A stretch of DNA of 64,000 bases from a virus (lineage: Duplodnaviria > Caudoviricetes): the IMG/VR virus record IMGVR_UViG_3300045747_000505; one strand, 5' to 3'. A model generated the notes under the pieces. That model was not told the origin of the DNA and did no database searches. It saw only the letters and a list, made by a program, of their open reading frames with translations. Positions 8,532 through 49,066 of this stretch are shown here, piece by piece. The position numbers and the translations under genes are program-made. The first letter of the stretch is position 1. Each line of letters begins with the position of its first letter.

Positions 8532-8560
8532 GTGATTCTTTACAAGTGAAGGTTGCGTCG

Positions 8561-11439: not shown

Positions 11440-11466
11440 TGGAATCGTCCTGAGGATCGTGTTCTC

Positions 11467-11472
11467 TATTTA
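11467..11472 (-). promoter_or_regulatory. T4-type late promoter (TAAATA)
   Basis: ATAAATAG on the minus strand 28 nt upstream of ATG 11439. Confidence 0.7.
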
Positions 11473-11550
11473 TGCCGTTCAACCAATCTTGAAGTTCGCT
11501 CTCAGCTCGATTCGTGATACAGTACATCAGAACTACGAAAGACATTCGAA

Positions 11551-13302: not shown

Positions 13303-13330
13303 GTACACGGGGTTCGATTCAGTGTAGAAT
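13303..13330 (+). promoter_or_regulatory. Sigma70-like early promoter, GTACACGGGGTTCG class
   Basis: GTACAC-N16-TAGAAT; same 14-mer and spacing as 60671. Confidence 0.6.
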
Positions 13331-13336
13331 CACCCC

Positions 13337-13537
13337 ATGACATTACGCTTCAATCCCGTCGATCTCACTTTCAATCGCAGTTGGGGTGGCGGGTATGAAC
13401 CGCGTGATGAACTGCCTTTCAACACAACCAAGGATCCTAAATGGTCATTCGCACTCGAGACTCAGCCGAACTCATCACTGAACCCATTCACGCCTCGGAC
13501 AATCCCCGAGGTAGTCGAACCCACCTCGTTCGACTGA
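13337..13537 (+). CDS. Possible leaderless small protein; overlaps the next ORF
   Basis: ATG 6 nt after TAGAAT; 66 aa; 97-nt out-of-frame overlap with 13441-13770. Confidence 0.35.
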   Translation: MTLRFNPVDLTFNRSWGGGYEPRDELPFNTTKDPKWSFALETQPNSSLNPFTPRTIPEVVEPTSFD

Positions 13538-13770
13538 CCGACGAGCAGGTCGACCTCATCGGCGCGTTCGCCGCGCTGACCGGAATGGGCCAAGGCCTCT
13601 ATCAGCAGGCGATGAGCGGCTTCCACGACATTCTGGAGTCGATCACCGACGATCCGGACTACCCACTCTACGCGTGCGACGTCGTTCAACTGACCGTCGA
13701 CTACCACTCGGCCGATGGGCACACGCTCTATCAGGTCATCGCCACCGACTGCATCACGATCAACGTATGA
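13441..13770 (+). CDS. Hypothetical protein
   Basis: 109 aa; AAGGA RBS; ATGA coupling to the next gene. Confidence 0.6.
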   Translation: MVIRTRDSAELITEPIHASDNPRGSRTHLVRLTDEQVDLIGAFAALTGMGQGLYQQAMSGFHDILESITDDPDYPLYACDVVQLTVDYHSADGHTLYQVIATDCITINV

Positions 13771-13997
13771 ACCTCTTTCCTATCCCTGAAGACGTCGCCT
13801 ACGAGCTCGGTCGCACTGACATCGACTACGACTGCGACGATGTGCCACGGCTGAACCGTGTCTGCAAGCTCTGCGGTGCCGACGGCCTGATGTGGGTTCG
13901 GCATGAGCTCGAGGCTGGCAGCGGCTGGGTCCTCGCCTACTCGTACGGTCCGCTCGCCAACAAGCTGCACGCCTGCGAATCGAAGTACCGCCCATGA
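13767..13997 (+). CDS. Small putative Zn-binding protein
   Basis: 76 aa from ATG 13767; CKLC...HAC; ATGA overlaps at both ends. Confidence 0.7.
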   Translation: MNLFPIPEDVAYELGRTDIDYDCDDVPRLNRVCKLCGADGLMWVRHELEAGSGWVLAYSYGPLANKLHACESKYRP

Positions 13998-14497
13998 GCT
14001 ACGCCACTCTGACCGAAGCGCAGCAGCGCAAGTTCGCCAAGCGGCTGGTGATGCGGCGCAGCGCTCACGTCGAGTGGGTTCGCGAGGGCTACATCGACGA
14101 GTGGCGCGACATTCTGATCGTTGGTGATCAGCCTGGACCACGCGCTCCGGACAACGTCGAGTATCATCACACGCCGTTCTACTCGAAGCTCTACAGCGGC
14201 GGGTGGTTGAACGAGCAGCTCGTGCTGAACGACATCGCTGAAGATCGACTGATGTGGATCAACTCCGCCAGCAAGGCCGGCTACCCAGCGCCGCCCGACA
14301 TTCTCAAGGCCAAGAAGTGGACCGCCGTCATCGCCCTCGGCAACAACGCCTATCACTGGGTGCATCTGCACGGCATGGTCGAGGCCATCAAGGTCTCGCA
14401 CCCACAGTTCCACAAGCGGTTCAAGGCCGCCGAGCGCTACGTCCTCCTCGACGTGCTTGAAGGTCTAACCAAGGTGCAGGTCGAAGCCGTCGGCTAA
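13994..14497 (+). CDS. Hypothetical protein
   Basis: 167 aa; ATGA coupling; typical codon usage. Confidence 0.75.
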   Translation: MSYATLTEAQQRKFAKRLVMRRSAHVEWVREGYIDEWRDILIVGDQPGPRAPDNVEYHHTPFYSKLYSGGWLNEQLVLNDIAEDRLMWINSASKAGYPAPPDILKAKKWTAVIALGNNAYHWVHLHGMVEAIKVSHPQFHKRFKAAERYVLLDVLEGLTKVQVEAVG

Positions 14498-14534: not shown

Positions 14535-15182
14535 ATGATTCCACAGTTCAATCGTCCCACCCTCGTCACTATCACCGGCCCAACCTGCTCAGGCAAGACC
14601 TTTCTGCGCGAGCGAGCCGAAAGCCGCTACGGTTGGAACCGCATCGTCTCGACCACCACTCGCCCAATGCGAGATGGTGAGGTCGAAGGCGTTGACTACT
14701 ACTTCATCTCTGAAGAGCAGTCGCGCAGCCTCGAAGCTGGTGGCCAGCTTGCTGAGCTCGTCGAGTTTCGTGGTGTTCGCTACGGCGTGACCGTCGCTGA
14801 GATGCACACCAAGTTCAATCGCGGCAACGCCGTCGCCACCGTCATTCTTGAGCCGAACGGCCTCGTTCAGTACCGCAAGCTCTGTCAAGAGCAGGGCGTC
14901 GACGTCTTCTCGATCTATGTGCACGTGGTCGAGGAGCAGCTGCTCGGTCGGCTACACTGGCGCGCGATGGCCGACGAGGAGCTTCGGTCGCCTGAGAACA
15001 TCGCCGGCATTCGCAAAGCCTACGAGGATCGCAAGAACTCGATCAAGGGCGAGGAGCGTCGTTGGCTCAACACCAACATCTGGAATGCGATCGTGCCAGG
15101 CGACGACGTCTTCAAGGCGATGGACATGATCGAGCTCGGCATTCAGTGGCACAATCGTCGCAACGAACAAGTCGCAGCCTAA
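14535..15182 (+). CDS. gmk: Guanylate kinase
   Basis: GPTCSGKT P-loop; VSTTTRPMRDGEVEGVDYYFIS signature; YG motif. Confidence 0.9.
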   Translation: MIPQFNRPTLVTITGPTCSGKTFLRERAESRYGWNRIVSTTTRPMRDGEVEGVDYYFISEEQSRSLEAGGQLAELVEFRGVRYGVTVAEMHTKFNRGNAVATVILEPNGLVQYRKLCQEQGVDVFSIYVHVVEEQLLGRLHWRAMADEELRSPENIAGIRKAYEDRKNSIKGEERRWLNTNIWNAIVPGDDVFKAMDMIELGIQWHNRRNEQVAA

Positions 15183-15191
15183 GGAGACACC

Positions 15192-15815
15192 ATGATCAAC
15201 GTTGACCTCGCCCGTACTTGCATCACCAAGCAGCTCGCCGCTCTTGACCGCCTCTACTCGGTCATCACCACCGACACCTACGCCGAGCTGCTTGAGGTCG
15301 TCATCAACACGGCTGGCTACACCTCTCGCAATCTGCTCATCGCTGGCGTTGGCAAGAACGCCGCCGTCGCCTCCAAGGTCGCCGACACCTTCTCAAGCCT
15401 GGGCATCCGAGCCTTTGCGCTCAACGTTTCGCATTTGGGTCACGGTGACTACGGTCGCATCGGCGTGCAGGACGCCATCATTCACCTGTCGCGCTCTGGC
15501 AAGACGCGCGAGATGCTTGAGGCCATCGAGCACATCAAGCTCATTCGTCCGTGGTGCTATCAAGCGCTGGTGCACTGCAACCCGCAGATCTACAAGCCAG
15601 CGCACCTCAACCTCGAGCTCTGCCTTGGCAGAGTCGAGGAGGCCGACGAGCACGGGCTCGCACCAACCTCAACGACAACGGCGCTCCTCTGCCTGATGGA
15701 TACAATAGCAGTTCAGGCCAGTCATGATCTCGCCTTCACACGGCTTGACTTTTTGAAGAACCATCCAGACGGAGCGCTCGGCGCCCTGTTGAAGGCCGAG
15801 CAGGAGGCATCATGA
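15192..15815 (+). CDS. SIS-domain sugar-phosphate isomerase (KdsD/GutQ arabinose-5-phosphate isomerase-like, no CBS domains)
   Basis: GVGKN, H.GHGD.G, SRSGKT.E, LAPTSTT..L..MD.IA, DF..NHP.G.LG. Confidence 0.85.
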   Translation: MINVDLARTCITKQLAALDRLYSVITTDTYAELLEVVINTAGYTSRNLLIAGVGKNAAVASKVADTFSSLGIRAFALNVSHLGHGDYGRIGVQDAIIHLSRSGKTREMLEAIEHIKLIRPWCYQALVHCNPQIYKPAHLNLELCLGRVEEADEHGLAPTSTTTALLCLMDTIAVQASHDLAFTRLDFLKNHPDGALGALLKAEQEAS

Positions 15816-29446: not shown

Positions 29447-30307
29447 ATGGCTCAAGACTACTACGCAACTCTCGGCCTCGACAAGAACGCCAACGACGAG
29501 GACATCAAGAAGGCCTATCGCCGGCTCGCCTCAAAGCATCACCCAGACAAGGTGCCTGAGGCTGAGAAGGCTTTCGCCACGGCGAAGTTCAAGGAGATCT
29601 CCACCGCGTATGACACGCTGAGCAACGCGGCCAAGCGACAAGCGTACGACAACCCACAGGCTCGTGGCTTTGACCGCAGCGACATGGAGGACATTCTCAA
29701 CGCGATGCGCGCCGCTCACGGACAGCGAGCGCAGGAGATGTACGCCATCGTTGTGACCATCTCGCTGAAGGACGCCTACACTGGCAAGACGCTCAATCTG
29801 AACCTCAACGGTTCGTCCGACTCCGTCGACCTGCCCGCTGGCGTTCCGCACCTCGCTCAAGGCCAGTACACGTCGAAGAACGGCAAGCTCGTCAACATCA
29901 CGGTTCGCATTCAGTCCGAGCCGTTCGCGATGAAGCCGATTCAAGAGGCGACGCGCATCGTCAACGCCGCCGGCAATGCCTTCACTGGGTCGATCGACAC
30001 CGGCGACCTCGAGCTGCGCGTTGACATCGACGCGCTCGACCTCATCATCGGCAAGTGGATCAAGGTCACCGACTTCCTCGGCGAAGAGCTACAGGTTCGC
30101 GTGCCGGGTGGCTTCAACCAGAGCAATCGTCTCAAGGTCAAGGGCAAGGGCTACGTTCACTGGTCGATCGAGAAGGCCGCAGCCGAGCCGCATCGCGCTG
30201 ACCTCTTCGTGCGCATCAACCCAATCTTCTCGCCGATCAGCAAGCTGAACAAGGACCGAGTTCAAGAGCTGCACGACGCGGTGTTCCCCAAGGAGAAGAC
30301 CGAGTGA
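29447..30307 (+). CDS. J-domain co-chaperone (DnaJ/CbpA-like, no Zn finger)
   Basis: DYY..LGL..NA....[16 protein letters not shown]; C-terminal GDL....D, LKVKGKG, DLFV. Confidence 0.9.
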
Positions 30308-30882
30308 CGCTTCAGCTGTCATATGGTGGTCTGCACACCGTCATCTCTGGCGGTCAAACTGGCGCCGATCAGGGTGGACTGCTCGCTGCTTGGCAGCACT
30401 GCGTCAAGACGGGCGGCACGGCGCCAGGTCGCTATCAGACGCAGAACGGTCCCAACCTGCTGCTTCGAACGCTTGGTCTCACCGCCGTCGGCACCTACGC
30501 CTCGCGCACCAAGGTCAACGTTCGTGATGCGGATGCGACCGTCATCATCGCCTACAACCCCGCCTCACCTGGCACGGCGCTGACCGTTGGTGCCTGCGTC
30601 GCGCTCAACAAGCCCTATTTGATCCTCGACGTTCGTGGCAACGTCAACATCGAGCTCGGCATCGATGAGGGCGACCGTTGGACGCTGATTCAACCACACT
30701 GCGTGGCTCTCTACGACTTCTGCATCAAGCACGGTGTGCTCATCCTCAACGTTGCCGGCAATCGAGAGATCCTCGCCATCGACAAGACCGTCACTCCAAT
30801 CGTGACCTCCATCGCTGAGGACATCGTCTTCGGCGCGCTTGAGCTCCTTCGACAGGACGATTTGCTCATTTTCAAACCGTAA
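30304..30882 (+). CDS. SLOG-superfamily protein (molybdenum-carrier-like / circularly permuted YpsA)
   Basis: [35 protein letters not shown]. Confidence 0.85.
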
Positions 30883-30885
30883 ATA
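30880..30885 (+). promoter_or_regulatory. T4-type late promoter (TAAATA)
   Basis: Overlaps the stop of 30304-30882, 22 nt before ATG 30907. Confidence 0.6.
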
Positions 30886-30906
30886 CACGAGCACTACAGC
30901 TCGCGC

Positions 30907-31794
30907 ATGGATTACTACACGACCCTTGGTCTGTCCAAGACCGCCACCCCTCAAGAGATCACGAGAGCTTATCGCAGACTGGCGATGAAGCATCACCCTG
31001 ATCGTAATGAGGGGTCTAAGGTTGCTGAGGAGAAGTTCAAGGAGATCAAGCAAGCCTACGAGACGCTGAGCGATGATGCCAAGCGACGGGCGTACGACAG
31101 CAAGCCCGCGTCATCAACCTCATCGTTCTCGCCTAGTCAGAAGTGGTCGCCACCAGAGTCGGCGTTCAAGGGCTACTACAACGAGAAGACGCGCGGCAAG
31201 CAGTGGATGAACGACGCACCGCCAGTGCGTCCGCCGGTGACCGTTCGTGCAATGCCGTCTGGCGACAGGCATCAGGTCGCGCGCGTCAGCATCGCCGAAG
31301 CGTATCGCGGGTTCAACTGTCTAGTTCAAGTTGGTCCTCGCATTCACAACATCAAGGTTCCCGCTGGCGTTCCACACGGGCTGACGTTCGAGATCGGTGG
31401 CGACACCGTGATGATTCTCTTTCAAGCGAATCAGTACTCGCCAACGCCGTACTCAACGTCGCCAAAGTCCATCGAGATCAACAAGGCAACCAATCAACCA
31501 TCGATCGTTCGCCGTTGCGGTCCACTCTATCTGATGCACACCATCGAGGAGCGAATGTCTGGTCGTTGGAAGCCCCCGCTGCCAACCAGCGTCACGCTCA
31601 CCGACTTTCTCGGTGAGTCCTTCAGCGTCAAGGTTCCACTTGGACTCTCGTCGGACCAGATTCGAACCCCAATCGAGGTTCCACGCCGTGGGTACGTCGA
31701 TTGGTATTCAGACGAGGCGCGCTGCGCCACCACCCGATCCCCACTCTTCGTCACTCTCAACCTTGTTGAGAAGTCCTTCGACACCTTCGCGTGA
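30907..31794 (+). CDS. Second J-domain co-chaperone
   Basis: DYY.TLGL.KTA....[16 protein letters not shown]; shares TDFLGE motif with 29447-30307. Confidence 0.9.
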
Positions 31795-31800
31795 TACAAT
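31792..31800 (+). promoter_or_regulatory. Extended -10, leaderless promoter
   Basis: TG-a-TACAAT; ATG 5 nt downstream; no SD. Confidence 0.6.
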
Positions 31801-31805
31801 ACACT

Positions 31806-32348
31806 ATGTCTACAAAACGCTCCGTCTACCTTTCATACCTCCTTCGGCACAAGCCCGAGACCGCTCACCTGACCCTCGACAAGGATGGTTGGTGCGACCT
31901 GAAGCAGCTGCTCGCCAACACGGACTTCACTCTTGAAGAGCTCGAGGACATCGTTGCCAAGGATGCCAAGCAGCGCTACTCCTTCTGGCCGGCGGCGTTG
32001 GCCAGCGCGCCGACTCACATTCGCGCCAATCAAGGGCACAGCACGACCGACGTCAAGCTGACCTTCACGAAGGCGGTGCCGCCGATCGTCCTCTACCACG
32101 GGTCCGACGCGCGCGTGATGCCAACCATTCTGAAGGATGGGTTGAAGGCGATGAACCGTCATCACGTGCACCTCTCCGCAGACCTTGAGGTCGCCAAGTC
32201 CGTTGGCGGTCGACGCAAGCGCGGCTTCGTTGTCTACGAGGTCAACGCCAAAGCGATGCTGGCGGACGGCATCGAGTTCTTCATCTCCGACAATGGCGTG
32301 TGGCTCGTCGACGCCGTTCCAGCAAAGTACCTGACGAAGACTTTGTAA
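31806..32348 (+). CDS. kptA: RNA 2'-phosphotransferase (Tpt1/KptA)
   Basis: LSYLLRH, LDKDGW, KQRY, IRANQGHS, LYHG, R.HVHLS, S.NGVWL. Confidence 0.95.
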   Translation: MSTKRSVYLSYLLRHKPETAHLTLDKDGWCDLKQLLANTDFTLEELEDIVAKDAKQRYSFWPAALASAPTHIRANQGHSTTDVKLTFTKAVPPIVLYHGSDARVMPTILKDGLKAMNRHHVHLSADLEVAKSVGGRRKRGFVVYEVNAKAMLADGIEFFISDNGVWLVDAVPAKYLTKTL

Positions 32349-32404
32349 CGGCGTTACAAATCGTCCTAAAAGATTGCTCCAGCCCGCCCAATTTGTGATA
32401 TGAT
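32342..32404 (+). promoter_or_regulatory. TTTGTAACG-G-CGTTACAAA palindrome + extended -10
   Basis: Perfect 9-bp inverted repeat containing the kptA stop; TG-a-TATGAT at 32399 (46 bp, atypical spacing). Confidence 0.6.
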
Positions 32405-32520
32405 ACACGTATCGGTGATAAGCTTTAGGTCTTAAGTGACGCGCAAGTTTATCATTGGCGGTAAGTCGAGAATCCAACCACTCGTCATATCTGCTAAACC
32501 TGGTTGGGTTAGGATCAGTC

Positions 32521-34800
32521 ATGAAAACCTCCCTCGCTGGCGAATTCGCCGGCAAACAAATCTCCGTCACCCTGAGCGCCACAAACCCTGGTGGCTTCTC
32601 CGTGGTTCCGTCTTTGCAAGACCAACCATCACCAAACCTCATTGTCGGGTTCGACGACAAGGTGACCTTCAATGGGAAGGACCTTCGTCTTGAGATCACC
32701 CCAGACTCAGTAGGGGTGAAGGTCGTGGACAACGGTCTCAAGAAGAACACCGTCACCGTCACCACCCCGAATGGCGACAAGAAGACCTTCGACGTCAAGA
32801 AGAACTCGAAGCCGACTCTGGACTTCGGCCCGCTTCAAGGCGTCCTCCCAGGCGTCCTGATGGACGACTTCCCGTTCGACGTCACGGCTGTCGCTGGTGC
32901 TGTTGCTGAGGTTCTTCCGGAAGAAAAGCCGAACACGTTCGAGCAGAACTGCTGCGTCATCTATCTGACTTCAAAGTCAGCCACCGAAATTCATACGCTG
33001 AGCCTAAAGCGGTTCCTCGGCGGCACCATTTCGCACCCAGAGATCGATGGTGTCAGAGTCGACTACTTCAATCAACAGACGAACTTTCTGCTCGACACCA
33101 TGATGTCGGCCGGTGCCATCGACCGTTTGATCGCCATTGTCAAGAAGGCGGTACACGACCTTGGGTGCCGATCACTGTTCATAATGGCCGACGAAGCCCA
33201 CGTTGCCAGCGGCGTTGATCATCAGCTTGGGAAGGTGCTGGCACACTTCAACTTCGTTTCGACGAACGGCGGGACCATTACCGTCGACGGCATCGAGGTT
33301 TCGCTGCGAATCATTGCCACTACCGCTACACCGACAACGAAAATTTCTCACGCTCTCGGCCTCAAAACCCCGATCATGCACGTGTACACCGAGCCAGGTG
33401 AAGGCTACTTTGGTGTCGACAAGTTGTTTGCCGGCAATCGCTTCGTCGAAGCCGATAAGGCGCTGACCCCGGCTGCTCTTGCCGAAATCCTGTTGGCTCA
33501 TCCTGGGTATAAGAAGGACGGCATCATCGTGCTGCGCCTTCCATCGAAGGCGCGAAAGAACAAGGACTTTGCCAAGGAGCTTAGGACTGCGCTCGGTGGT
33601 CAACACGCGATCGATGAGTTCGATTCGAAGCGGAACAATCTGAAGGAGTTCGACGAGTACGTATCCGAAGGGATCGAAGCTCGTGGTCGCGGTGCGATCG
33701 TTCTGCTCAAGGACGGTTTCAGTGCCGGCTTCACGCTCAGCTCAACCAAGCTCATCGCCTGTTGGGTCGACCTTTACTACAACGCCTTCGAAGCTCAGTG
33801 CCAATCCGTTGGCCGCATTTTTGGTTACGGGAAGACCAACGACACCTTCCCAGTGATCACAACGCGCCACGGGCTCGAACGGTACCAAGAGATCATCGTC
33901 AAGCATCGTCTTGCCCAAATCCCAAGTGTCAACGTGACGTTGAGCACGGCGAAGCGCAAGGCGTCGCAATCGCGGTTCAAGTTCGCGGCCAAGGCTCAAT
34001 ACGAAATTGGCACGCTGAAAGACTTCCAGGAAGACTTTCGGCGCCGCCACGAAGTGTGGCCAGCCGCGCTGGTGGACGGAGAGACGAACAGCGATTCGGA
34101 ATACCACGTTTGCGGATGGACGCAGCAGAACATTTCAGACACGCTGCATCGTCCAACGCATGGCATCCAGCTGCGCGCGTTCGACCTTAGTGTCCCTGGT
34201 GTCGCCAATGACGCGGAGCTCGAGAAGGCCGATTGCCCGAAGTGGTTCAACAAGGATGGCTCTCCTTTGCCGAGCGCCTTGCCAGACGGCCGCAAAGGAC
34301 CAAAGGAACCAGAAGCTTACTTCAATAGCTTCGTAGCGCTCCGCAAGAAGTACAAGGACCAGATGGCCGAGGGCAAAACCTTCATCTGGGCCTCCACCAA
34401 GTTGAACACCGTGGTCAGCGCTTTCGATGCCAACGAGGAAAAGACCGGCAAGCCTCTTCCTACTGGGATTGGTCCTCCGGACAGAAATCCCTCAAGCACG
34501 AACGATGAGGACTGCGTCCCGAACGTGTTCTTCACGGGAGATCCAGAGCCTTGGATCGTCGAGCTGGTGAAGTACGTTCGGTTGCAGCTCAACGGGCTTT
34601 ATGCAACCAACCCGAAGCCAACTGATCCGATCTACGAGACCACGATCGAGCCTGTCGCAAAGCTGCTTAGCGCCATTCACACCGGCGAGGAGTCGACGAT
34701 CCTGCTCACGGCTCAGATGCAGGCCGGCAAGACAGGTATAATGATCCTTCTCATGCACTGTCTGCCGCGCTTCATCAATCACACAGCCAGGATCAAGTAA
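32521..34800 (+). CDS. SF2 helicase/ATPase-like protein with Walker A at the C-terminus
   Basis: 759 aa; DEAH (33190), TATPT, SAGFTL, QSVGRIFGY (about 33800); AQMQAGKT only at about 34710. Confidence 0.7.
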   Translation: MKTSLAGEFAGKQISVTLSATNPGGFSVVPSLQDQPSPNLIVGFDDKVTFNGKDLRLEITPDSVGVKVVDNGLKKNTVTVTTPNGDKKTFDVKKNSKPTLDFGPLQGVLPGVLMDDFPFDVTAVAGAVAEVLPEEKPNTFEQNCCVIYLTSKSATEIHTLSLKRFLGGTISHPEIDGVRVDYFNQQTNFLLDTMMSAGAIDRLIAIVKKAVHDLGCRSLFIMADEAHVASGVDHQLGKVLAHFNFVSTNGGTITVDGIEVSLRIIATTATPTTKISHALGLKTPIMHVYTEPGEGYFGVDKLFAGNRFVEADKALTPAALAEILLAHPGYKKDGIIVLRLPSKARKNKDFAKELRTALGGQHAIDEFDSKRNNLKEFDEYVSEGIEARGRGAIVLLKDGFSAGFTLSSTKLIACWVDLYYNAFEAQCQSVGRIFGYGKTNDTFPVITTRHGLERYQEIIVKHRLAQIPSVNVTLSTAKRKASQSRFKFAAKAQYEIGTLKDFQEDFRRRHEVWPAALVDGETNSDSEYHVCGWTQQNISDTLHRPTHGIQLRAFDLSVPGVANDAELEKADCPKWFNKDGSPLPSALPDGRKGPKEPEAYFNSFVALRKKYKDQMAEGKTFIWASTKLNTVVSAFDANEEKTGKPLPTGIGPPDRNPSSTNDEDCVPNVFFTGDPEPWIVELVKYVRLQLNGLYATNPKPTDPIYETTIEPVAKLLSAIHTGEESTILLTAQMQAGKTGIMILLMHCLPRFINHTARIK

Positions 34801-34803
34801 CTT

Positions 34804-35736
34804 ATGAAATCACCGATCGTCATCATGACATGGCAACGTGCCAGTCTTGCGCAACAGAAGACTTGGGCCCGCATTCCTGATGACCTTCGGTCGCTGGTGC
34901 GCTTCGCTTGCCGCGAGGACGAAGCGCCGTTCTTCGAGAGCCTGCAACGGCCGTATGGCACGAAGCCATTCGTTCTCCCGTCCCACGTCGCTTCGATGAA
35001 GGAAACTCGTCAAGCGATCTGGGACCACTTCAACAACACCGACGAGTTCTGGTGCCAAATCGACGACGACACGAAGAAGTTCCTGAAGCTCGACTACCAT
35101 TGGCAAGATCCTGAAGAGCGCGAGAAGCGTCGGAAGCCGTGGGACGAAGGTGATGCACCACAGCAGCGCCTGTACGAGATTCATGCCAAGCCTCGCCATC
35201 AGCACAGCTTCGATGGCCTTGAGGCGATGTTCGATCGCTGCATCGATGTGCTGAAGTCGAACCCGTACATCGGCACGGTCTCACCACGGCAGACGTTCAA
35301 GATGGCGTCGCCGAAGACGCCGCTTGGTGATTTTGGCAAGACGATCAGCAACGATCCCAACTTCCTCGGCTCGGCCGAGCTGTGCGTCGGCTTCAATGCC
35401 TTCTGCTCCGAGCGCAATCTCAAGCTGAACTACGAGTTCAAGTGGAACTACTGCGGTGACACCGGCATGATCTACCGGATGCTGAGCCAGGGCTATGACA
35501 CCGTGTACCTTCGTGACTACACGATCGATCAAGATCGTCCGACCAAGGGTGCGACCTGGCGCAAGAGCTCTGTCGAAGAGTTCCGACAGTTCCGTGAAGA
35601 ATACCCCAACTACTTCCGAGACGAGAAGAAGATCGACGATGCAGTTCAATCGTCAGACCAACCACAGAAGGGTTGGAAGATGCTGCGGTCGAAGCTGCTG
35701 AAGGATGCTCGCAAGCGTCTTCAGATCGTCGTCTGA
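34804..35736 (+). CDS. Glycosyltransferase resembling T2/T6 beta-glucosyl-hmC-alpha-glucosyltransferase (TET-associated GT-A family)
   Basis: IVIMTWQR, REDE, TRQAIWD, WCQIDDDT and later GD..M...ML..GY fit that family. Confidence 0.7.
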   Translation: MKSPIVIMTWQRASLAQQKTWARIPDDLRSLVRFACREDEAPFFESLQRPYGTKPFVLPSHVASMKETRQAIWDHFNNTDEFWCQIDDDTKKFLKLDYHWQDPEEREKRRKPWDEGDAPQQRLYEIHAKPRHQHSFDGLEAMFDRCIDVLKSNPYIGTVSPRQTFKMASPKTPLGDFGKTISNDPNFLGSAELCVGFNAFCSERNLKLNYEFKWNYCGDTGMIYRMLSQGYDTVYLRDYTIDQDRPTKGATWRKSSVEEFRQFREEYPNYFRDEKKIDDAVQSSDQPQKGWKMLRSKLLKDARKRLQIVV

Positions 35737-35778: not shown

Positions 35779-35813
35779 CGGATCATCAATCAGCAACTGA
35801 CAAGGACAATCGA

Positions 35814-36731
35814 ATGAACACTTGGGAAAATCAATACCTCGATCTCGTCGAGAACATTCTGGTGATCGGCGACGATCGCACAGATCGCACTGGCACGGGC
35901 ACTCGTGCCGTGTTTGCTCGCACTCTTGACATCGATGTGTCGCGCAACTTTCCGCTGCTCACGACGAAGAAGATGCCGATCAAGTCGGTGGTCTCCGAGC
36001 TGATCTGGTTTCTGGAGGGTTCGACCGACGAGCGCCGGCTGTGTGAGATTCACCACGGCACTCGCGACGCCTCCAAGACGACCATCTGGACCGCCAACGC
36101 GCAGGCCGACTACTGGAAGCCGAAGGCCAAGTTCGACGGCGACCTCGGCGAGGTCTATGGCAAGCAGTGGCGCAGCTGGCCGACGTACGAGCGCGCGACC
36201 ATCGTCGGCTCTGAAGGCGACGTCATCGAGATACCCTATTTCGTCGAGGGTAAGCCGATCGATCAGCTGGCTGAAGCCATCAGAAAGATTCGCACCAACC
36301 CAGTCGATCGTCGCATCATGGTCTCAGCGTGGAACGTCGCCGCCATGAATCAGGTCGCGCTGCCGCCGTGCCACTACTCGATGCAGTTTTTCGTTGACAG
36401 CGGTCGTCGTCTGTGCCTGCTCTGGAATCAGCGCAGCGTCGACACTGGGCTTGGATTGCCGTTCAACATCGCCTCGTACGCGCTGCTGCTCTCGATGGTG
36501 GCGCACGTCACCGGCTGCGTTCCGTATCGCCTCATCGCCAACCTCGGCGACACGCACATTTACAGCGACCACATCGAGCCGATGTCACATCAGATCACGC
36601 GCCAGCCAATGACGCCGCCGACGCTCTGGCTGAACCCTGACGTGAAGGAGATCGACGACTTCACGATGGACGACATTCGCATCGATGGCTACGTCTCGCA
36701 CGACGCCATTCCGATGAAGATGAGCACCTGA
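35814..36731 (+). CDS. thyA: Thymidylate synthase (classical, dUMP-specific Asn retained)
   Basis: DRTGTGT, FPLLTTKK, ELIWFL.G, LPPCH, QRSVD.GLGLPFNIASY, GDTHIY. Confidence 0.97.
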   Translation: MNTWENQYLDLVENILVIGDDRTDRTGTGTRAVFARTLDIDVSRNFPLLTTKKMPIKSVVSELIWFLEGSTDERRLCEIHHGTRDASKTTIWTANAQADYWKPKAKFDGDLGEVYGKQWRSWPTYERATIVGSEGDVIEIPYFVEGKPIDQLAEAIRKIRTNPVDRRIMVSAWNVAAMNQVALPPCHYSMQFFVDSGRRLCLLWNQRSVDTGLGLPFNIASYALLLSMVAHVTGCVPYRLIANLGDTHIYSDHIEPMSHQITRQPMTPPTLWLNPDVKEIDDFTMDDIRIDGYVSHDAIPMKMST

Positions 36732-36733
36732 TC

Positions 36734-37054
36734 ATGGGCCACTACGCTGTTGACTTTCAGTGCGACGTCTGTGGCCAACTTCGCTGCGCATGCCCACCAA
36801 AGCCTGATCCTCAGGCTCACTGGTTCATGGTCAACAGCGGCGACTTCACCGTGCACAAGGTCTCCGACTTCATTGAGAAGAATCGAGCCGACCCGATGTG
36901 CAACATGCGCGTCATGACAGCGCAGCGCTACAAGACTCGCAAGGAGGCTGAGGTCGCTGCCGAATCGCTCTTCACTGGCTCCATCGAGCTGATGAAGGAT
37001 CGTCTCAAGACCCTGCGCCGCAAGGGTCGAACCAAACCCTGGGAATCGAAATGA
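36734..37054 (+). CDS. Hypothetical protein with N-terminal Cys cluster
   Basis: CDVCGQLRCAC; 106 aa. Confidence 0.7.
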   Translation: MGHYAVDFQCDVCGQLRCACPPKPDPQAHWFMVNSGDFTVHKVSDFIEKNRADPMCNMRVMTAQRYKTRKEAEVAAESLFTGSIELMKDRLKTLRRKGRTKPWESK

Positions 37055-37521
37055 TGTATCAAACTGGACACCTGCTTGACGAGGTCAAGACGGGCGTCAT
37101 TCTACAGCAGGTCAACGCGCAGGGCAAGATGGCCTCTGGCTTCGCCAAGGCGATTCGTGACAAGTGGCCGAGCGTCTGGGAGAACTACAGCCGGCTCGTG
37201 ACGCCTGGCGATGATGCTCACACCTTTCGTCACCTCGGCAAGGTCATTCTCGTTGAGGTTGAGGACGGTCTCTACGTCGCCAATCTGGTCGGGCAGCACT
37301 TCTACGGGCGTGATCCCAACGTGCGCTACACGTCCTACGACGCGCTCGACGACGCGCTGCATCGTCTCCGCTCGTGGATCGACAACTCGACCATCAGCAC
37401 CGAGGAGATTCATCACCCGCTGATCGGCTGTGGTCTCGGCAATGGTCAGTGGAGCGTCGTGGAGGCGCTCATTCGAAACAATCTCGGTGATCGCACAACT
37501 CTCTGGACGCAACCCACCTGA
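37051..37521 (+). CDS. Macrodomain (ADP-ribose binding/hydrolase, Poa1p/T4 Tk.4-like)
   Basis: QQVNAQGKMASGFAKAIRDKWP, VANL.GQ..YG, P.IGCGLG.G.W..V. Confidence 0.9.
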   Translation: MMYQTGHLLDEVKTGVILQQVNAQGKMASGFAKAIRDKWPSVWENYSRLVTPGDDAHTFRHLGKVILVEVEDGLYVANLVGQHFYGRDPNVRYTSYDALDDALHRLRSWIDNSTISTEEIHHPLIGCGLGNGQWSVVEALIRNNLGDRTTLWTQPT

Positions 37522-43252: not shown

Positions 43253-46200
43253 GTGGCAAATTTCGACCTCGCATTTCAGCCAGAGAATGGCATCAACCTC
43301 GACGGGCTCGTCGGCATCTTCACCGGCATCATTGACCCGTCAATCGTTGGTGAGGCGGCGCCAATCGGCTCGCTCTACCTCAGCACCTCTGGTCGCCTCT
43401 ATCAGAAGGTCACCGCGCTCGATACAGGGTGGATGGTCTTCTCACAAGGTCTTGGCGAAGCGCTGAAGATCTCAGCGACCGACACGACGGCTGGCTACCT
43501 CAACACGAAGCTGCTGACCTCAGCAGCGCTGACCAAGACGGTCGGCAATGCTGGTGCTAACGAGACGCTCACGCTTGATCTAGCAAGCGTCGGCACCGCT
43601 GGCACGTATCGCTCGGTCACGACGAACTCCAAGGGTCAGGTCACCGCTGGTACCAATCCAACGACCCTTTCCGGCTACGGCATCACCGACGCGCAGCCAC
43701 TGGCTACGAACCTTACGGCGCTCGCTGGCGTCGCAACAACAGGACTCTATGTTCGTCAAACTGCTGGTGGCACAACTATCACTCGCACAATCGTCGGCAC
43801 GACGAACCAGATCAACGTACTTGCTGGCGACGGCGTCAGCGGAAACCCGACGCTCTCATTCTCATCGACCGTTCTGTTTCCAGGCACGACTGGCATTCGA
43901 CCGCCAAGCGGCACCACGGCTCAGCGCGTTGCCACCGCCTCGTACCTGCGCTTCAATACAACCACGGCAGCGCTCGAGTACTACAACGGCACCACGTGGG
44001 TCTCACTCGTCGCCTCCACTGGCGGCACAGTCACCTCCATCAGCACGGTAGCGCCAACTGAAGGTCTCACAATCACTGGCGGTCCAATCACCGCGGCTGG
44101 CACGCTGACCTTCACGCTTGCCAACGATCTCGCCGCTCTTGAGAGCATCGCAACCACTGGCTTCAGCGCTCGCATCGGCACGGACACTTGGGCGGCGCGC
44201 AACCTCACTGGCACGCTCGACCGTCTCGAAATCACAAACGGTGCTGGCGTCGCTGGTGACCCAACCTTCGACATCGCCTCTACCTACGCGGGTCAATCGT
44301 CCATCATCACGCTCGGCAACATCACGACTGGCTCTTGGGCTGCGACGACGATTGACATTGGTCACGGTGGCACGGGTCGCACCAGCATCGGCGGCGCCAA
44401 CACTGTCCTCGGCGTAAACACGACCGCCACAGCTCTTGAGTACAAGGTCATCGTTGGCGGTACTGGCATCAGCGTCTCACCAACTGCCAATCAACTACAG
44501 ATCACCAACAGCGGCGTCACATCGGTGACTGGCACGACCAATCAGGTCAACGTCTCTGGCAGCACCGGCTCCATCACGTTCTCGCTGCCACAGTCGATCG
44601 CTACGACGTCCACGCCAACGTTCGCGCAGGTTACCGTTGCAGCTGATCCAGCTGCACCGTTGCAGCTCGCTACCAAGCAGTACGTTGACAACGCTGTTCA
44701 AGGTCTCGATGCCAAGCAGTCGGTCGCCGCTGCGACCACGACGAACATCACGCTGAGCGGTGAGCAGACGATCGACAACGTGGCGCTCGACACGGGTGAT
44801 CGTGTCCTCGTCAAGAACCAGACGACCGCTTCACAGAACGGTATCTACGTTGTTTCGTCCGGTGCGTGGACTCGCGCACTCGATCTCGACACCTGGGCTG
44901 AGGCTGTTGACGCCTTCACCTTCGTCGAGGGTGGCATCGCTCTGGCTGGCACTGGGTGGATTGCCAACGGCTCCCGCACTGGCACCATCGACACCACCGC
45001 GATGCCGTGGGTTCAGTTCTCACAGGCAGGCGTCGTCAACGCCGGCGGTGGTCTCACGCAGTCGGGCACGACCATCAGTCTGTCACCAGTCGGCACCGCC
45101 GGCACGTACAACGACGTTACAACGAACGCCTACGGTCAGGTCATCAGTGGCACGAACCAACCATACCTCACCGCCAATCAGAACATCACGCTTCAGGGCG
45201 ATGTCACCGGTGTTGGCAACACGCTCATCACCACCGCGCTCTCGGCAACCGGCGTGGCGCCTGGCACCTACAAGTCGGTGACCGTCGATGCCAAGGGTCG
45301 CATTGGCGCCGCCACGAATCCAACCACGCTCGCTGGCTACGGCATCACCGACGCGCAGCCAATCAACGCCTATCTGACGGCGCTGTCTGGTCTGGCGACC
45401 AACGGCATCGTCATTCGCTCTGGCAACACGACCACGACTCGCACCATCGACGCTGGCTCCACGAAGGTCTCGGTCAACTTCGCCGATGGCGTCGCTGGCA
45501 ATCCAACGATCGACGTCGTCGAAGCCAACCTTGCGCTGAACAACATCAGCGGCACGCTTGCGGTCAGCAAGGGCGGCACTGGTCTCAGCGCCGTCAATGG
45601 CGCCAACACGCTGCTTGGTGTCAACGCTTCATCGAACGCGCTTGAGTACAAGGCGCTCACTGGCACCGGCATCACCATCACGCACTCACCGGCTGGCATC
45701 AACTTCACCACCATCAACAACGGCACCGTCACCTCTGTCGCAGCGACTGGAAGCACGGGTCTGACGGTTGGCGGCACGCCAATCACCAGCGCTGGCACGC
45801 TGACCTTCACGCTCAGCACGGAACTTCAGGCGCTCTCTGGTCTTGCCACGCTCGGCTTCGTGTCGCGCACCGCCGCCAACACCTACGTCACGCGCTCGGT
45901 GGTCAGCGGCAACGCTACCATCAGCATCTCGAACCCAGCCGGCTCAGCTGGCAACGTCAGTCTTGACCTCGCCACCGTCGGCACCGCTGGCACCTTCAAG
46001 TCAGTCACGACCGACATCTACGGTCGCGTCACCTCTGGCACGAATCCAACAACGCTCGCCGGCTATGGCATCACCGATGCCGCACCGAACACGCTCGCCT
46101 ACCTCACGGTCGGTTCTGAGCCGACGCTGACCAATGAGCGCCGTCTTGCTGGCACGACCAGCCAGATCACGCTCGCCGACAATGGCGCCAACTCAACGCT

Positions 46201-49066
46201 TGTCATTGGACTCGCAGCCGACGCCGTGCTTCCAGGCACTGGCTCAGTCACCGTTCCGGCTGGTACTACGGCTCAGCGAACTCCAGCGCCAGCCGTTGGC
46301 GCGTCTCGCTTCAACACCGACCTGCTCGCCATCGAGTATTGGGACGGTTCGACGTGGCAACCAGTTGGTCGTCAGACGTTCGTTGATGCGAAGTTCCCAA
46401 TGGGTTTCTACGACCGTCTTGGCGAATCAACGCTCGCCGTCGTCGCTGGCACTCGCACCTTCACCATCACGCCGATTGGCGCTCACTTCACGTACTACCA
46501 CTCTGGTACGCGCATCGAGAAGACGACCGCCGAGAGCGTGGTCTGGCCAAACTCAAGCGGCATGTGGTACTTCTCGTACAGCGCCGCTGGCGTGCTCACC
46601 GCGTCTGGCTCGTTCTACGACCTCGCAACGCAGGTCCCAGCCGCCAATCTGTACTGGGACGCGACCAATCAGAAGATTCTGACCTTCGCCGACGAGCGCC
46701 ACGGCGCTACGATGGACTGGGCAACGCACCAGTACCTGCACCTCACCGTCGGTCCGAAGTACTACAGCGGTCTTCAGCTCGGCAACTACACGACGGCCGG
46801 CACTGGCACGGCAGCGGCTGACGCTGAGCTCAGCCTCACCAGCGGCGTGCTGTTCGACGAAGACCTGCGCATTGCCATCACGCACTCCGCGACGCCAACG
46901 AGCGCCAACGAGCAGAACCTGACGCCAATCGCTCAGATCCCAGTCTTCTATCGCATCGGCGCTGGCGTTGCGAACTGGCAGGGCGACACGGCTAGCAACT
47001 TCCCAATCAAGTTCGGCACCGCCCGCGCTCGCTACAATCTGAACACCGCTGGCACTTGGTCGCTGGCTGATGTGGGTGAGGGCGAGTACCTTGCAATGTG
47101 GGTCTTCGCCTCGAACGGCTACACGGACCCGGTCTTTGCGATGATGGGTCAGCGCACTGACACAACGCTGCAGAACGCCATCGACAACAACCTGTTCAGC
47201 ACGATGGACTTCGGTGCGCACGTCTCTGCTGAGTCCAAGCTGCTGTACCGTCTCATCTACCAGACGAGCTCCGCCTACACGAACGCCGTCAAGGCTCGAC
47301 TGGTCGATGTGCACGACATGCGCACCACGACCGAGCTGACAATTGCTGCGACCTCGCTCGTTGACCACAGCGACCTGGCTGGTCTCAACGGCGATGACCA
47401 TATTCAGTATGTCCACCTTGCCAACGTTCGCACCATCTCGGCTCAGCACATCTATCAGCCGATTACTGCAGCTGCACCATTCGCTCTTGGCGCCAACGCT
47501 CAAGGTCAGCTCGTCACAGGCTTCAACGCTGACACCGTCGATGGCCTGCACGCAGCCTCGTTCCAAGCGGCCGATGCTGACCTCACCGCCATCGCTGCGC
47601 TGACTGGCACCGGCATCGCTGTTCGCACTGCCGCTGACACGTGGACGACGCGCACTCTCGTAGCGCCTGCCGCTGGTCTGACCATCGCCAATCCAGCCGG
47701 CATTGCCGCTGGTCCGACCTTCGCGCTCGCTGATGACCTGAACGCCCTTGAAGCGCTCGCCACCACTGGTCTCGCCGTTCGCACTGGCACCTCCGCCTGG
47801 ACGACGCGCACGCTCGTCGCTGGCACTGGCATCACCATCGCCAACACTGATGGTGTTGCTGGCAACATCACCATCTCTGCGCCTGGCGGCTCTGGAGTTA
47901 CGTCGGTCGCTCTCGCCCTACCGTCCATCTTCACGGTGTCTGGTTCGCCGATCACCACGACTGGTACGCTGACTGGCACTCTCGCCACGCAGGCGCAGAA
48001 GACCGTCTTCGCTGGTCCTACGTCTGGCGTCAACGCCGCACCAACGTTCCGTACTCTGGCGCTCGCCAACGACCTCAGCGACGTCGTGGTCACCACGCCA
48101 ACCGTCGGTCAGGTCCTCGCCTACGACAACACGACATCCAAGTGGGTCAACGCTGGTGCCGTCGGCACGAGCGCTGCTGGTCTCATAGGCGCTGGTCAGG
48201 CTGGTGCCGCCGCTTGGACGCTGTCCTCTGGCACTCGCTACTTCGCCGACTTCACCCACGGGCTTGGCACGACCAACGTCGTCATCACCGTCTACGACAC
48301 GGCGACGAACGCCGTCGTCATTCCAGACAGCATCATTCTGACGACCACGACCACGGTCCGTGTCACAGTCATCGGCAACACTCGCACGCTTCGAGTCGTC
48401 GTTGTTGCCAACGGCAACTCTGTCACCATCGGTGGTGGAGGTGGAGGTGGCAACGTCGCCATCGCCAAGGATGGCGCGACGGTCGTCGCAACGGCATCGA
48501 CCATCAACTTCCGTGGTGCGCCAATCACGGTGGCTGACGCTGGTGCTGGCACTGCAAACGTAACGATTGGCGCTCGCTACTCGTTCATGGCGCACTCGCT
48601 TGACACACCGAACACCGCTGACTACGCCGTCAACGCAATCGCCGCAGCCACAACCGACCCGACCTCCACCTCACTGAGCGTTCGCTCGTTCAGCAACACG
48701 GTCGAGCAGGGCGTCGCGTTTCAGGTCTCCATTCCGGCGAACGCAACGACGATGACGCTCAAGATTCGTGGTCGCGCTGCGACAGCCCCTGGTGCTGTCA
48801 ACGTCGTTCAACCTCGCCTCTACTCGCGCGTCATTCCAAACAACGCCGCGATGGGCGCCTGGTCTGCAGCGTTCGAGCTGAACAACATCTCCATTCCAAC
48901 GAACGCGTTCTTTCAGTATTCGACGCAGACCATTCCGCTGACGACACTTGGCATCACCGCTGACAGTCTCTATCAGTTCGAGCTGACACGGCGCATCACT
49001 GGCGTGACTGGCACTAACCTCGCCTCAGCCTTCTATATGGTTGAGCTAATCTGTGAGTTCAGCTAA
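43253..49066 (+). CDS. Very long fibre-like virion structural protein
   Basis: 1937 aa; Thr/Gly/Ala-rich; repeated GT..SVT.D..GR.T.GTNPTTL.GYGITDA units; ATKQYVD; DRVLVKNQT..SQNGIYV. Confidence 0.88.
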   Translation: MANFDLAFQPENGINLDGLVGIFTGIIDPSIVGEAAPIGSLYLSTSGRLYQKVTALDTGWMVFSQGLGEALKISATDTTAGYLNTKLLTSAALTKTVGNAGANETLTLDLASVGTAGTYRSVTTNSKGQVTAGTNPTTLSGYGITDAQPLATNLTALAGVATTGLYVRQTAGGTTITRTIVGTTNQINVLAGDGVSGNPTLSFSSTVLFPGTTGIRPPSGTTAQRVATASYLRFNTTTAALEYYNGTTWVSLVASTGGTVTSISTVAPTEGLTITGGPITAAGTLTFTLANDLAALESIATTGFSARIGTDTWAARNLTGTLDRLEITNGAGVAGDPTFDIASTYAGQSSIITLGNITTGSWAATTIDIGHGGTGRTSIGGANTVLGVNTTATALEYKVIVGGTGISVSPTANQLQITNSGVTSVTGTTNQVNVSGSTGSITFSLPQSIATTSTPTFAQVTVAADPAAPLQLATKQYVDNAVQGLDAKQSVAAATTTNITLSGEQTIDNVALDTGDRVLVKNQTTASQNGIYVVSSGAWTRALDLDTWAEAVDAFTFVEGGIALAGTGWIANGSRTGTIDTTAMPWVQFSQAGVVNAGGGLTQSGTTISLSPVGTAGTYNDVTTNAYGQVISGTNQPYLTANQNITLQGDVTGVGNTLITTALSATGVAPGTYKSVTVDAKGRIGAATNPTTLAGYGITDAQPINAYLTALSGLATNGIVIRSGNTTTTRTIDAGSTKVSVNFADGVAGNPTIDVVEANLALNNISGTLAVSKGGTGLSAVNGANTLLGVNASSNALEYKALTGTGITITHSPAGINFTTINNGTVTSVAATGSTGLTVGGTPITSAGTLTFTLSTELQALSGLATLGFVSRTAANTYVTRSVVSGNATISISNPAGSAGNVSLDLATVGTAGTFKSVTTDIYGRVTSGTNPTTLAGYGITDAAPNTLAYLTVGSEPTLTNERRLAGTTSQITLADNGANSTLVIGLAADAVLPGTGSVTVPAGTTAQRTPAPAVGASRFNTDLLAIEYWDGSTWQPVGRQTFVDAKFPMGFYDRLGESTLAVVAGTRTFTITPIGAHFTYYHSGTRIEKTTAESVVWPNSSGMWYFSYSAAGVLTASGSFYDLATQVPAANLYWDATNQKILTFADERHGATMDWATHQYLHLTVGPKYYSGLQLGNYTTAGTGTAAADAELSLTSGVLFDEDLRIAITHSATPTSANEQNLTPIAQIPVFYRIGAGVANWQGDTASNFPIKFGTARARYNLNTAGTWSLADVGEGEYLAMWVFASNGYTDPVFAMMGQRTDTTLQNAIDNNLFSTMDFGAHVSAESKLLYRLIYQTSSAYTNAVKARLVDVHDMRTTTELTIAATSLVDHSDLAGLNGDDHIQYVHLANVRTISAQHIYQPITAAAPFALGANAQGQLVTGFNADTVDGLHAASFQAADADLTAIAALTGTGIAVRTAADTWTTRTLVAPAAGLTIANPAGIAAGPTFALADDLNALEALATTGLAVRTGTSAWTTRTLVAGTGITIANTDGVAGNITISAPGGSGVTSVALALPSIFTVSGSPITTTGTLTGTLATQAQKTVFAGPTSGVNAAPTFRTLALANDLSDVVVTTPTVGQVLAYDNTTSKWVNAGAVGTSAAGLIGAGQAGAAAWTLSSGTRYFADFTHGLGTTNVVITVYDTATNAVVIPDSIILTTTTTVRVTVIGNTRTLRVVVVANGNSVTIGGGGGGGNVAIAKDGATVVATASTINFRGAPITVADAGAGTANVTIGARYSFMAHSLDTPNTADYAVNAIAAATTDPTSTSLSVRSFSNTVEQGVAFQVSIPANATTMTLKIRGRAATAPGAVNVVQPRLYSRVIPNNAAMGAWSAAFELNNISIPTNAFFQYSTQTIPLTTLGITADSLYQFELTRRITGVTGTNLASAFYMVELICEFS

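Follow-up and report, generated by a model that had tools for sequence, protein, structure and literature searches.

A Phage-Borne, Circularly Permuted SF2 NTPase Encoded Directly Upstream of a TAGT-Type Glycosyltransferase

Introduction

Natural circular permutations of P-loop motors are rare. The combination of a circularly permuted superfamily 2 (SF2) helicase with a TAGT-family glycosyltransferase has been known since 2013 and is represented in Pfam. It was described in GREB1, a protein in which a zinc-binding region is combined with an SF2 helicase that is circularly permuted and catalytically inactive, and whose C-terminal part is a glycosyltransferase akin to the TET/JBP-associated glycosyltransferases (TAGT) of phages (PMC7968844, PMC6163654); both papers cite Iyer et al. 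2013. Here we analyze a 64,000-nucleotide stretch of tailed-phage DNA (IMG/VR record IMGVR_UViG_3300045747_000505; Caudoviricetes), referred to below as the window, in which the gene at 32521–34800 on the plus strand encodes an SF2 NTPase of permuted motif order and is directly followed by a gene for a TAGT-type glycosyltransferase. The 759-residue translation of 32521–34797 is termed P0001. What is new is a phage-borne version of the module that is split into two genes, retains intact motifs, and has close normal-order relatives showing how the permutation arose, although the authors of the 2013 paper on the GREB1 module may already have noted phage versions.

Several other known systems bear on this locus. 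The nearest in sequence is an unnamed viral SF2 family of normal motif order, which has Walker A at the front, whereas P0001 has an additional 142-residue N-terminus and a linker. JBP2 of kinetoplastids fuses a TET/JBP thymidine hydroxylase to a SWI2/SNF2 ATPase and resembles the phage pair in logic, in that an SF2 motor is coupled to an enzyme of hydroxymethyl-pyrimidine and glucosyl (base J) chemistry on DNA. Its motor, however, belongs to another SF2 family and is not permuted, and its partner is a dioxygenase rather than a glycosyltransferase. Z1-associated SF2 ATPases share the short motifs Q.GKT and GR.FGY with P0001 but have the normal motif order, and the phage locus, unlike theirs, has no nuclease partner. 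HsdR/Res of type I and type III restriction, RecQ, and DEAD-box helicases adopt the same two-RecA fold without permutation, a likeness at the level of the fold only.

Motif Order of the Permuted Protein

The reading frame is open from 32455 (+) and likely starts at ATG 32521, which has an AGGA six nucleotides upstream; a TTG at 32455 is disfavored. From this start, 759 codons lead to a TAA. An N-terminal extension (residues 1–142; 32521–32946), devoid of homologue coverage and predicted at low confidence to be β-rich (predicted local distance difference test, pLDDT, of 30–50), precedes the SF2 core (residues 143–470; 32947–33930), over which homologues align and pLDDT is ∼90. This core comprises RecA2 together with a RecA1 domain that lacks its first strand, P-loop, and helix. 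The first element past the permutation break is the motif Ia strand and turn, CCVIYLTSKS (residues 144–153; 32950–32979), followed by motif II/Walker B, DEAH (residues 224–227; 33190–33201), whose Asp and Glu are nearly invariant in the family, and by motif III, TATP (residues 268–271; 33322–33333), whose Ala and Thr are invariant or nearly so. Motif V, SAGFTL (residues 401–406; 33721–33738), with nearly invariant Ala402 and Gly403, and motif VI, QSVGRIFGY (residues 428–436; 33802–33828), which holds the arginine and in which Gln, Gly, Arg, and Gly are invariant or nearly so, complete the core.

Behind the core lies the family C-terminal region (residues 471–632; 33931–34416), which has low pLDDT and is collinear with homologues to about residue 513 by BLASTP and phmmer; residues 600–628 resemble the tail of the homologues by eye only. 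A linker rich in Pro, Gly, Asn, and Asp (residues 633–669; 34417–34527; pLDDT below 50), to which no homologue aligns, then leads into the relocated family N-terminal segment (residues 670–759; 34528–34797), composed of two helices, strand β1, the P-loop, and helix α1. Here the strand STILLTA (residues 725–731) runs into Walker A/motif I, AQMQAGKTG (residues 731–739; 34711–34737), with its Lys737. In alignment A6 the Gln and Lys of this motif are invariant and the Gly and Thr nearly so. A helix at residues 740–754 follows, and the TAA comes after residue 759. Motif VI is thus separated from the strand and Walker A by 294 residues, and Walker A ends 20 residues before the stop. Ahead of DEAH, P0001 holds no Walker A, and the sole GK there (AGEFAGKQ, residues 6–13) lacks a Ser or Thr. 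The initial annotation, which had read the order as Ia, DEAH, TATP, V, VI, about 290 residues, and then Walker A with a helix, without a Walker A N-terminal to DEAH, was right in every positional detail. A candidate P-loop relic within residues 1–150, where LQGVLPG and a helix at 121–131 are suggestive by eye, was rejected at an hhalign probability of 0.3% against the family P-loop segment.

The motif set of an active SF2 NTPase is present, namely the Walker A Lys and Thr, the Walker B Asp and Glu, motif III, and the motif VI Arg, and the catalytic motifs of P0001 are, as read from the sequence, intact. P0001 has no match in Pfam, PHROGs, PADLOC, NCBIfam, or the sequences of the PDB. GenBank phages returned no match to P0001, to the TAGT protein, or to protein P0009, and IMG/VR yielded nothing for P0001 or the TAGT protein, as did two scans of JGI metagenomes. 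A scan for promoters and terminators near the helicase gene gave nothing above chance. Codon choice had been described as less biased than that of neighboring genes; the codon adaptation index (CAI) of 0.61 is indeed the lowest among 17 genes (G+C content at third codon positions, 0.71), but it lies within the spread of the window genes.

Permutation Relative to Normal-Order Homologues

A phmmer search, run exhaustively over 1.84 billion representative proteins, retrieved 59 of them. All full-length homologues (∼50, from viral metagenomes) carry Walker A, then DExH, then motif VI, with Q.GKT(G) near the front, some 25–30 residues ahead of the Ia strand. Against these proteins P0001 aligns in two blocks of swapped order. 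BLASTP places residues 11–90 of homologue P0004 on residues 670–750 of P0001 (E 9e-5) and residues 105–474 on 146–508 (E 5e-26); for homologue P0003, residues 193–247 fall on 705–758 and 249–612 on 146–513. The break in P0003 thus lies between residues 247 and 249, exactly between helix α1 and the Ia strand. The C-terminal 95 residues of P0001 fall cleanly onto the N-terminal segments of 50 relatives, where a helix, a strand, Q.GKT, and a helix follow one another; about 10 of these relatives are significant matches on their own. The homologues offer no counterpart to residues 1–142 or 633–669. The resulting layout is a new N-terminus, the core from Ia to the family C-terminal region, a linker, and the old N-terminal segment. 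These sequence comparisons show P0001 to be an SF2 NTPase that has undergone genuine circular permutation, as had been supposed from its motif order, and the order swap is far beyond chance. Because close normal-order relatives exist, the permutation event can be read residue by residue, with its break, linker, and added N-terminus.

Identity of the homologues to P0001 over the core is 26–31%. Signatures shared by the family are Q.GKTG, a conserved Gln and Arg after motif Ia, DExH, (S/T)ATP, PG.GY(Y/F)G, AG.T, and QS.GR..GY. According to the ESM Atlas, the normal-order family (feature score 0.97) belongs mostly to giant viruses (Nucleocytoviricota) and also to phages, its members being hypothetical proteins that are partly ResIII-like. 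In a quick maximum-likelihood tree of the core, which does not include GREB1, P0001 joins the group of P0003–P0012 (SH-aLRT 89–92) on a long branch. Neither fused nor longer forms were found; the analysis covered longer proteins. Where tblastn alignments of P0003 and P0012 ran past the TAA into the start of the TAGT gene, the extension was attributed to chance, the TAGT N-terminus giving an hhalign probability of 0.2% against the core profile.

Some features of the relatives and of their alignment stand apart from the permutation. In MAFFT alignments, the RecA1 strand and P-loop repeatedly came to lie on the RecA2 strand and motif V, where many relatives read RAGKTL; the mix-up makes the internal RecA1/RecA2 repeat visible and is a pitfall in the alignment of permuted helicases. 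Long N-terminal extensions (∼200 residues) occur in the normal-order proteins P0003, P0005, P0020, P0026, P0029, and P0031. Residues 96–132, in the N-terminal domain of the normal-order P0032, give a weak match to EVE (PUA-like; 18.2 bits against a cutoff of 23), which is a lead only. EVE domains are proposed readers of modified bases. A distant normal-order relative of 542 residues with a degenerate motif VI is encoded within 3000–14000 of an IMG/VR viral genome (L009), where its neighbors are a C5 cytosine DNA methylase, a dCMP deaminase, an Asp/Asn hydroxylase-like protein, a weak 2-oxoglutarate-Fe(II) oxygenase match, and a spermidine-synthase-like protein.

Independent Contigs and a Divergent Relative

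The permuted order is present in DNA assembled more than once. Two Logan contigs from separate studies, one of 6.7 kb from a pond metagenome and one of 7.9 kb from a wetland metagenome, span 32200–35200 with zero differences; at most one of the two can be the source of the window. In runs X3 and X4 the same stretch is covered in pieces only. A JGI contig (L001) is identical over residues 194–759 and the next gene. A JGI contig from another sample (L002) carries a divergent relative, whose helicase frame is open at the 5′ end of the contig and whose 3′ end reads Walker A and helix, TAA, three nucleotides (CAG), and the ATG of a 310-residue TAGT gene. From the normal order of all other family members, which the initial annotation had named as a sign of artefact, one might suppose that assembly had misjoined two parts of an ordinary gene. 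The homologues are indeed of normal order, yet single contigs of two studies cross the gene and both junctions without a difference, L001 is identical, and the 3′ arrangement recurs in L002, which is 42% identical in this part; misassembly, contradicted on each of these counts, can be given almost no credence. Beside these contigs, a short contig of higher depth (16.6) in run X3 covers window positions 32268–32332, matching to 32332, near the end of the upstream Tpt1 gene, beyond which its sequence is unrelated; the region downstream of Tpt1 seems to be different in a related strain.

Over the last 113 helicase codons, the window and L002 share 42% amino acid identity, with 0.53 nonsynonymous substitutions per site (dN) and saturated synonymous sites. 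Divergence is uneven along this stretch: the 19-codon Walker A block is 89% identical (proportions of differing nonsynonymous and synonymous sites, pN 0.066 and pS 0.77), whereas the other 94 aligned codons are 33% identical, and the linker is not of equal length in the two. From this pattern it follows that the permuted arrangement is old and inherited and that the relocated P-loop is under strong purifying selection. The recent acquisition that the codon usage had been taken to hint at finds no support, the codon difference being small and the permuted form old, with synonymous sites saturated between the two relatives. The glycosyltransferase gene is 87% identical (dN 0.074, synonymous dS 0.95). 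The divergence thus jumps at the boundary of the two genes (window 34420–35736 against L002 1–1305), a pattern that suggests either a recombination event at this point or a motor that evolves much faster.

The layout of P0001 is what one would expect of a tandem duplication whose product was then truncated at its two ends. One might accordingly regard the gene as a decaying, non-functional product of rearrangement, whether by tandem duplication and deletions or by insertion of a TAGT–ThyA cassette into a second copy, and its CAI, the lowest among its neighbors, points the same way. The 759-codon frame is nevertheless free of stops, the arrangement, stop position, and conserved P-loop have been kept in L002 across saturated synonymous divergence, and no second partial helicase copy was found elsewhere in the 64,000-nucleotide window. 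We regard decay as very improbable.

Predicted Completion of RecA1

AlphaFold2 predicts the core (residues 143–470) at the high confidence noted above, and Foldseek matches this core to HsdR, RECQL5, BLM, and DEAD-box helicases (E 1e-6 to 1e-5, 12–14% identity). Docking of the C-terminal piece was modeled by folding residues 138–520 and 665–759 as separate chains, for each of which a clean alignment was supplied, beside three controls. The interface score ipSAE was 0.76, 0.73, and 0.75 (score 0.75) against 0.00 for the best of the three controls. When the tool was calibrated, 58 of 80 solved complexes attained this mark, as did 2 of 110 mismatched pairs, counts that are only roughly valid here because our own alignments were used. 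Contact agreement among the runs was at least 70%, and partner pLDDT was at least 79. In the model, the tightest contacts place strand 726–730 between residues 264–268, the motif III strand, and residues 286–289, and the P-loop contacts residues 218–226 (DEAH) and 427–436 (motif VI). The modeled place of the strand is the canonical β1 position; the piece fits, which is not proof of binding.

The Glycosyltransferase Neighbor

The helicase stop is followed by a single codon (TAA 34798–34800, CTT; 34798–34803, +), after which the ATG at 34804 opens the gene of a 310-residue, GT-A-like glycosyltransferase of the TAGT type (34804–35736, +), so that the adjacency to a DNA-glycosyltransferase-like gene described in the initial annotation stands. 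The two frames are in phase. The glycosyltransferase has a DDD motif that is conserved in L002. It matches Pfam PF20691 with E 6e-6 and 26.8 bits, below the cutoff of 27.5, over profile positions 2–199 of 205, and PHROG 842 (beta-glucosyl-HMC-alpha-glucosyltransferase) with E 3.3e-13. The TAA, the single codon, and the in-phase spacing are all kept in L002 (367–375), although spacing in phase would arise by chance one time in three. Loss of the stop or read-through at this TAA would yield a GREB1-like fusion of permuted helicase and TAGT.

Next on the same strand is a thymidylate-synthase homologue (35811–36731, +; frame open from 35673, ATG 35811; PF00303, E 1e-92; TIGR03284, 270.7 bits). Virus glycosyltransferases that hypermodify DNA are reported to adjoin thymidylate-synthase homologues and sometimes helicases (bioRxiv 10.1101/2023.12.21.572611).

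A motor with no relation to the TAGT enzyme, serving replication, recombination, anti-defense, exclusion, or a restriction-like process and adjacent through dense gene packing, would agree with the contexts of the normal-order relatives. None of these includes a TAGT or otherwise recognizable glycosyltransferase gene, although their contigs are short and little informative; the reading frame after the L009 relative is not TAGT-like. The presence of type I restriction HsdR among the best Foldseek matches would also agree, as would an ESM Atlas language-model search in which one neighbor cluster, at rank 46, has Z1 in 54% of its members. Yet the pair and its 3-nucleotide in-frame spacing are kept in L002 despite 42% helicase identity, and the sole described family of the same topology is fused to the same glycosyltransferase family. 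Nor does P0001 match the Z1 domain (PF10593 context) or any PADLOC defense model. The link to Z1-associated ATPases of restriction-like systems that had been drawn from short motifs is left with that one distant cluster, and the idea of a phage-borne exclusion system has no family evidence behind it. We think it improbable that the motor is unrelated to its neighbor; given the pairing with a DNA-glycosyltransferase-type gene, the modification-linked motor also suggested at the outset is the best reading.

Comparison with GREB1

Of 53 relatives of P0001, 14 match the Pfam family PF20692, “circularly permuted SF2 helicase found in GREB1”, at E up to 0.01 (best 7.9e-11); the family recognizes relatives that are not permuted. 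It is the sole specific family among the relatives' Pfam matches, the generic ResIII being found in 27 of the 53. The Walker A segment of P0017 aligns to positions 679–708 of the 716 in the PF20692 profile, and the region from Ia to motif III of P0021 to positions 76–260. These profile coordinates imply that the GREB1 module has the same topology as P0001 with about the same break point. The known matchers P0017, P0021, and P0049 lie in the other half of the core tree from P0001.

Like P0001, the GREB1 module has an SF2 core with the Walker A strand, loop, and helix behind motif VI near its end, and a TAGT-family glycosyltransferase follows directly. Since P0001 is permuted and a TAGT-type gene is adjacent, the window holds the helicase–glycosyltransferase part of the GREB1 architecture as two genes. 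The differences are that the phage pair is divided by a TAA and one codon whereas GREB1 is one fused protein; that P0001 lacks a GREB1-type N-terminal zinc-binding region, its residues 1–145 containing two Cys and no His; that the P0001 motifs are intact, whereas the GREB1 module is described as inactive (PMC7968844); and that P0001 is phage-borne, whereas GREB1, GREB1L, and GREB1-like proteins belong to animals and protists. By analogy, the phage pair is most likely a two-gene, catalytically intact counterpart of the GREB1 module.

Separate origins of the two permutations are possible because, in sequence and in the tree, the nearest relatives of P0001 are of normal order. More tentatively, and with odds that we put well short of even, the pair might be the still-active free ancestral form of the GREB1 module or else the outcome of a second permutation event that took place independently inside a viral family of normal order. 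In either case, the C-terminal P-loop would put the ATP site beside the glycosyltransferase and might mechanically couple ATP turnover with sugar transfer.

Proposed Function and Its Limits

We consider it probable that P0001 hydrolyzes ATP as a permuted SF2 enzyme and acts together with the TAGT enzyme on phage DNA. In the scheme we propose, the first RecA1 unit (two helices, β1, the Walker A loop, and α1) would have been cut from the front of the protein and rejoined behind the family C-terminal region through a Pro/Gly-rich linker of ∼35 residues, and a new 142-residue extension would have been placed before motif Ia. The C-terminal strand would take up its place in the RecA1 sheet again, flanked by the strand of motif III and the one after it, and an ordinary ATP site would be rebuilt from Lys737/Thr738, DEAH, TATP, and the motif VI arginine. 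Made together with the glycosyltransferase encoded 3 nucleotides downstream, P0001 would use ATP to track along DNA or open it locally, which may give the TAGT enzyme access to hydroxymethyl-pyrimidines or another acceptor.

Several points weigh against this scheme. The permuted helicase of GREB1 itself is described as catalytically inactive (PMC7968844), and P0001, whole or in parts, matches no Pfam family, PF20692 included, at E up to 10. The branch leading to the P0001 core is long (2.26 changes per column; median, 0.93), which would also fit relaxed constraint. Any physical interaction between P0001 and the TAGT enzyme is putative. The neighboring ThyA homologue scores as an ordinary thymidylate synthase, and the scanned reading frames of the window include no hydroxymethylase or TET/JBP enzyme. 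The two-chain result may reflect model memory of SF2 structures, as the two pieces belong to a well-known fold. Whole-chain AlphaFold2 predictions gave no readable docking: with alignment A4, in which the C-terminus is covered by the L002 fragment only, the C-terminal segment has pLDDT below 50, and with alignment A3, built from mixed fragments, pLDDT there is 70–90 and DSSP assigns only a single bridge, at residue 730. In a single whole-chain alignment, MAFFT misplaces P-loop fragments or pulls tails onto the C-terminus, which limits what these predictions say about docking. The completion of RecA1 by the C-terminal strand, which the initial annotation had proposed to examine with AlphaFold, is favored by the two-chain models and not by the whole-chain ones.

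The inactivity described for the GREB1 module, the long core branch, and the lack of confident whole-chain docking would suit an ATPase-dead scaffold, which binds nucleic acid or holds the TAGT enzyme on DNA and in which the C-terminal block serves only folding or partner binding. On the other side, the GKT, DEAH, TATP, and motif VI arginine are all intact, the stretch that the window and L002 have both conserved coincides exactly with the Walker A loop and its flanks, and the two-chain model rebuilds the canonical site. We therefore give the scaffold little weight beside an active motor.

Genomic Surroundings

The window is part of a large phage and encodes, among others, a tail collar protein, both subunits of a type II topoisomerase, PhoH, an RNA ligase, Tpt1, a SLOG protein, and the ThyA homologue; no tRNA was found in its 64,000 nucleotides. 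Directly upstream of the helicase gene (30304–32348) are a circularly permuted YpsA SLOG protein and an RNA 2′-phosphotransferase (Tpt1/KptA), and a weak macro-domain protein is encoded downstream (37051–37521), such that an NAD/ADP-ribose theme flanks the gene pair. An antisense frame of 321 residues (31833–32798, −) lies across Tpt1 and the first part of the helicase gene and most likely owes its existence to the high G+C content. Two DnaJ-like genes lie at 29447–30307 and 30907–31794.

Farther away, 14535–15812 holds a guanylate-kinase-like gene (E 2.7e-13) and a weak SIS-domain gene (24.9 bits against a cutoff of 25), whose neighbors of 562 and 167 residues have no Pfam match. At 43253–49066, a 1937-residue frame without a Pfam match is followed by a gene of concanavalin-like lectin fold and a DUF4376 gene; all three probably encode virion or tail-fiber proteins.

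Implications

As a viral counterpart with its catalytic residues in place, the phage pair stands beside the “dead permuted helicase plus glycosyltransferase” of GREB1. What the module originally did can thereby be put to the test in a simple phage and enzyme system, by asking whether an SF2 motor drives or gates the glycosylation of DNA bases. P0001 is also a candidate accessory factor for phage DNA hypermodification pathways, which decide the sensitivity of phages to restriction and other defenses.

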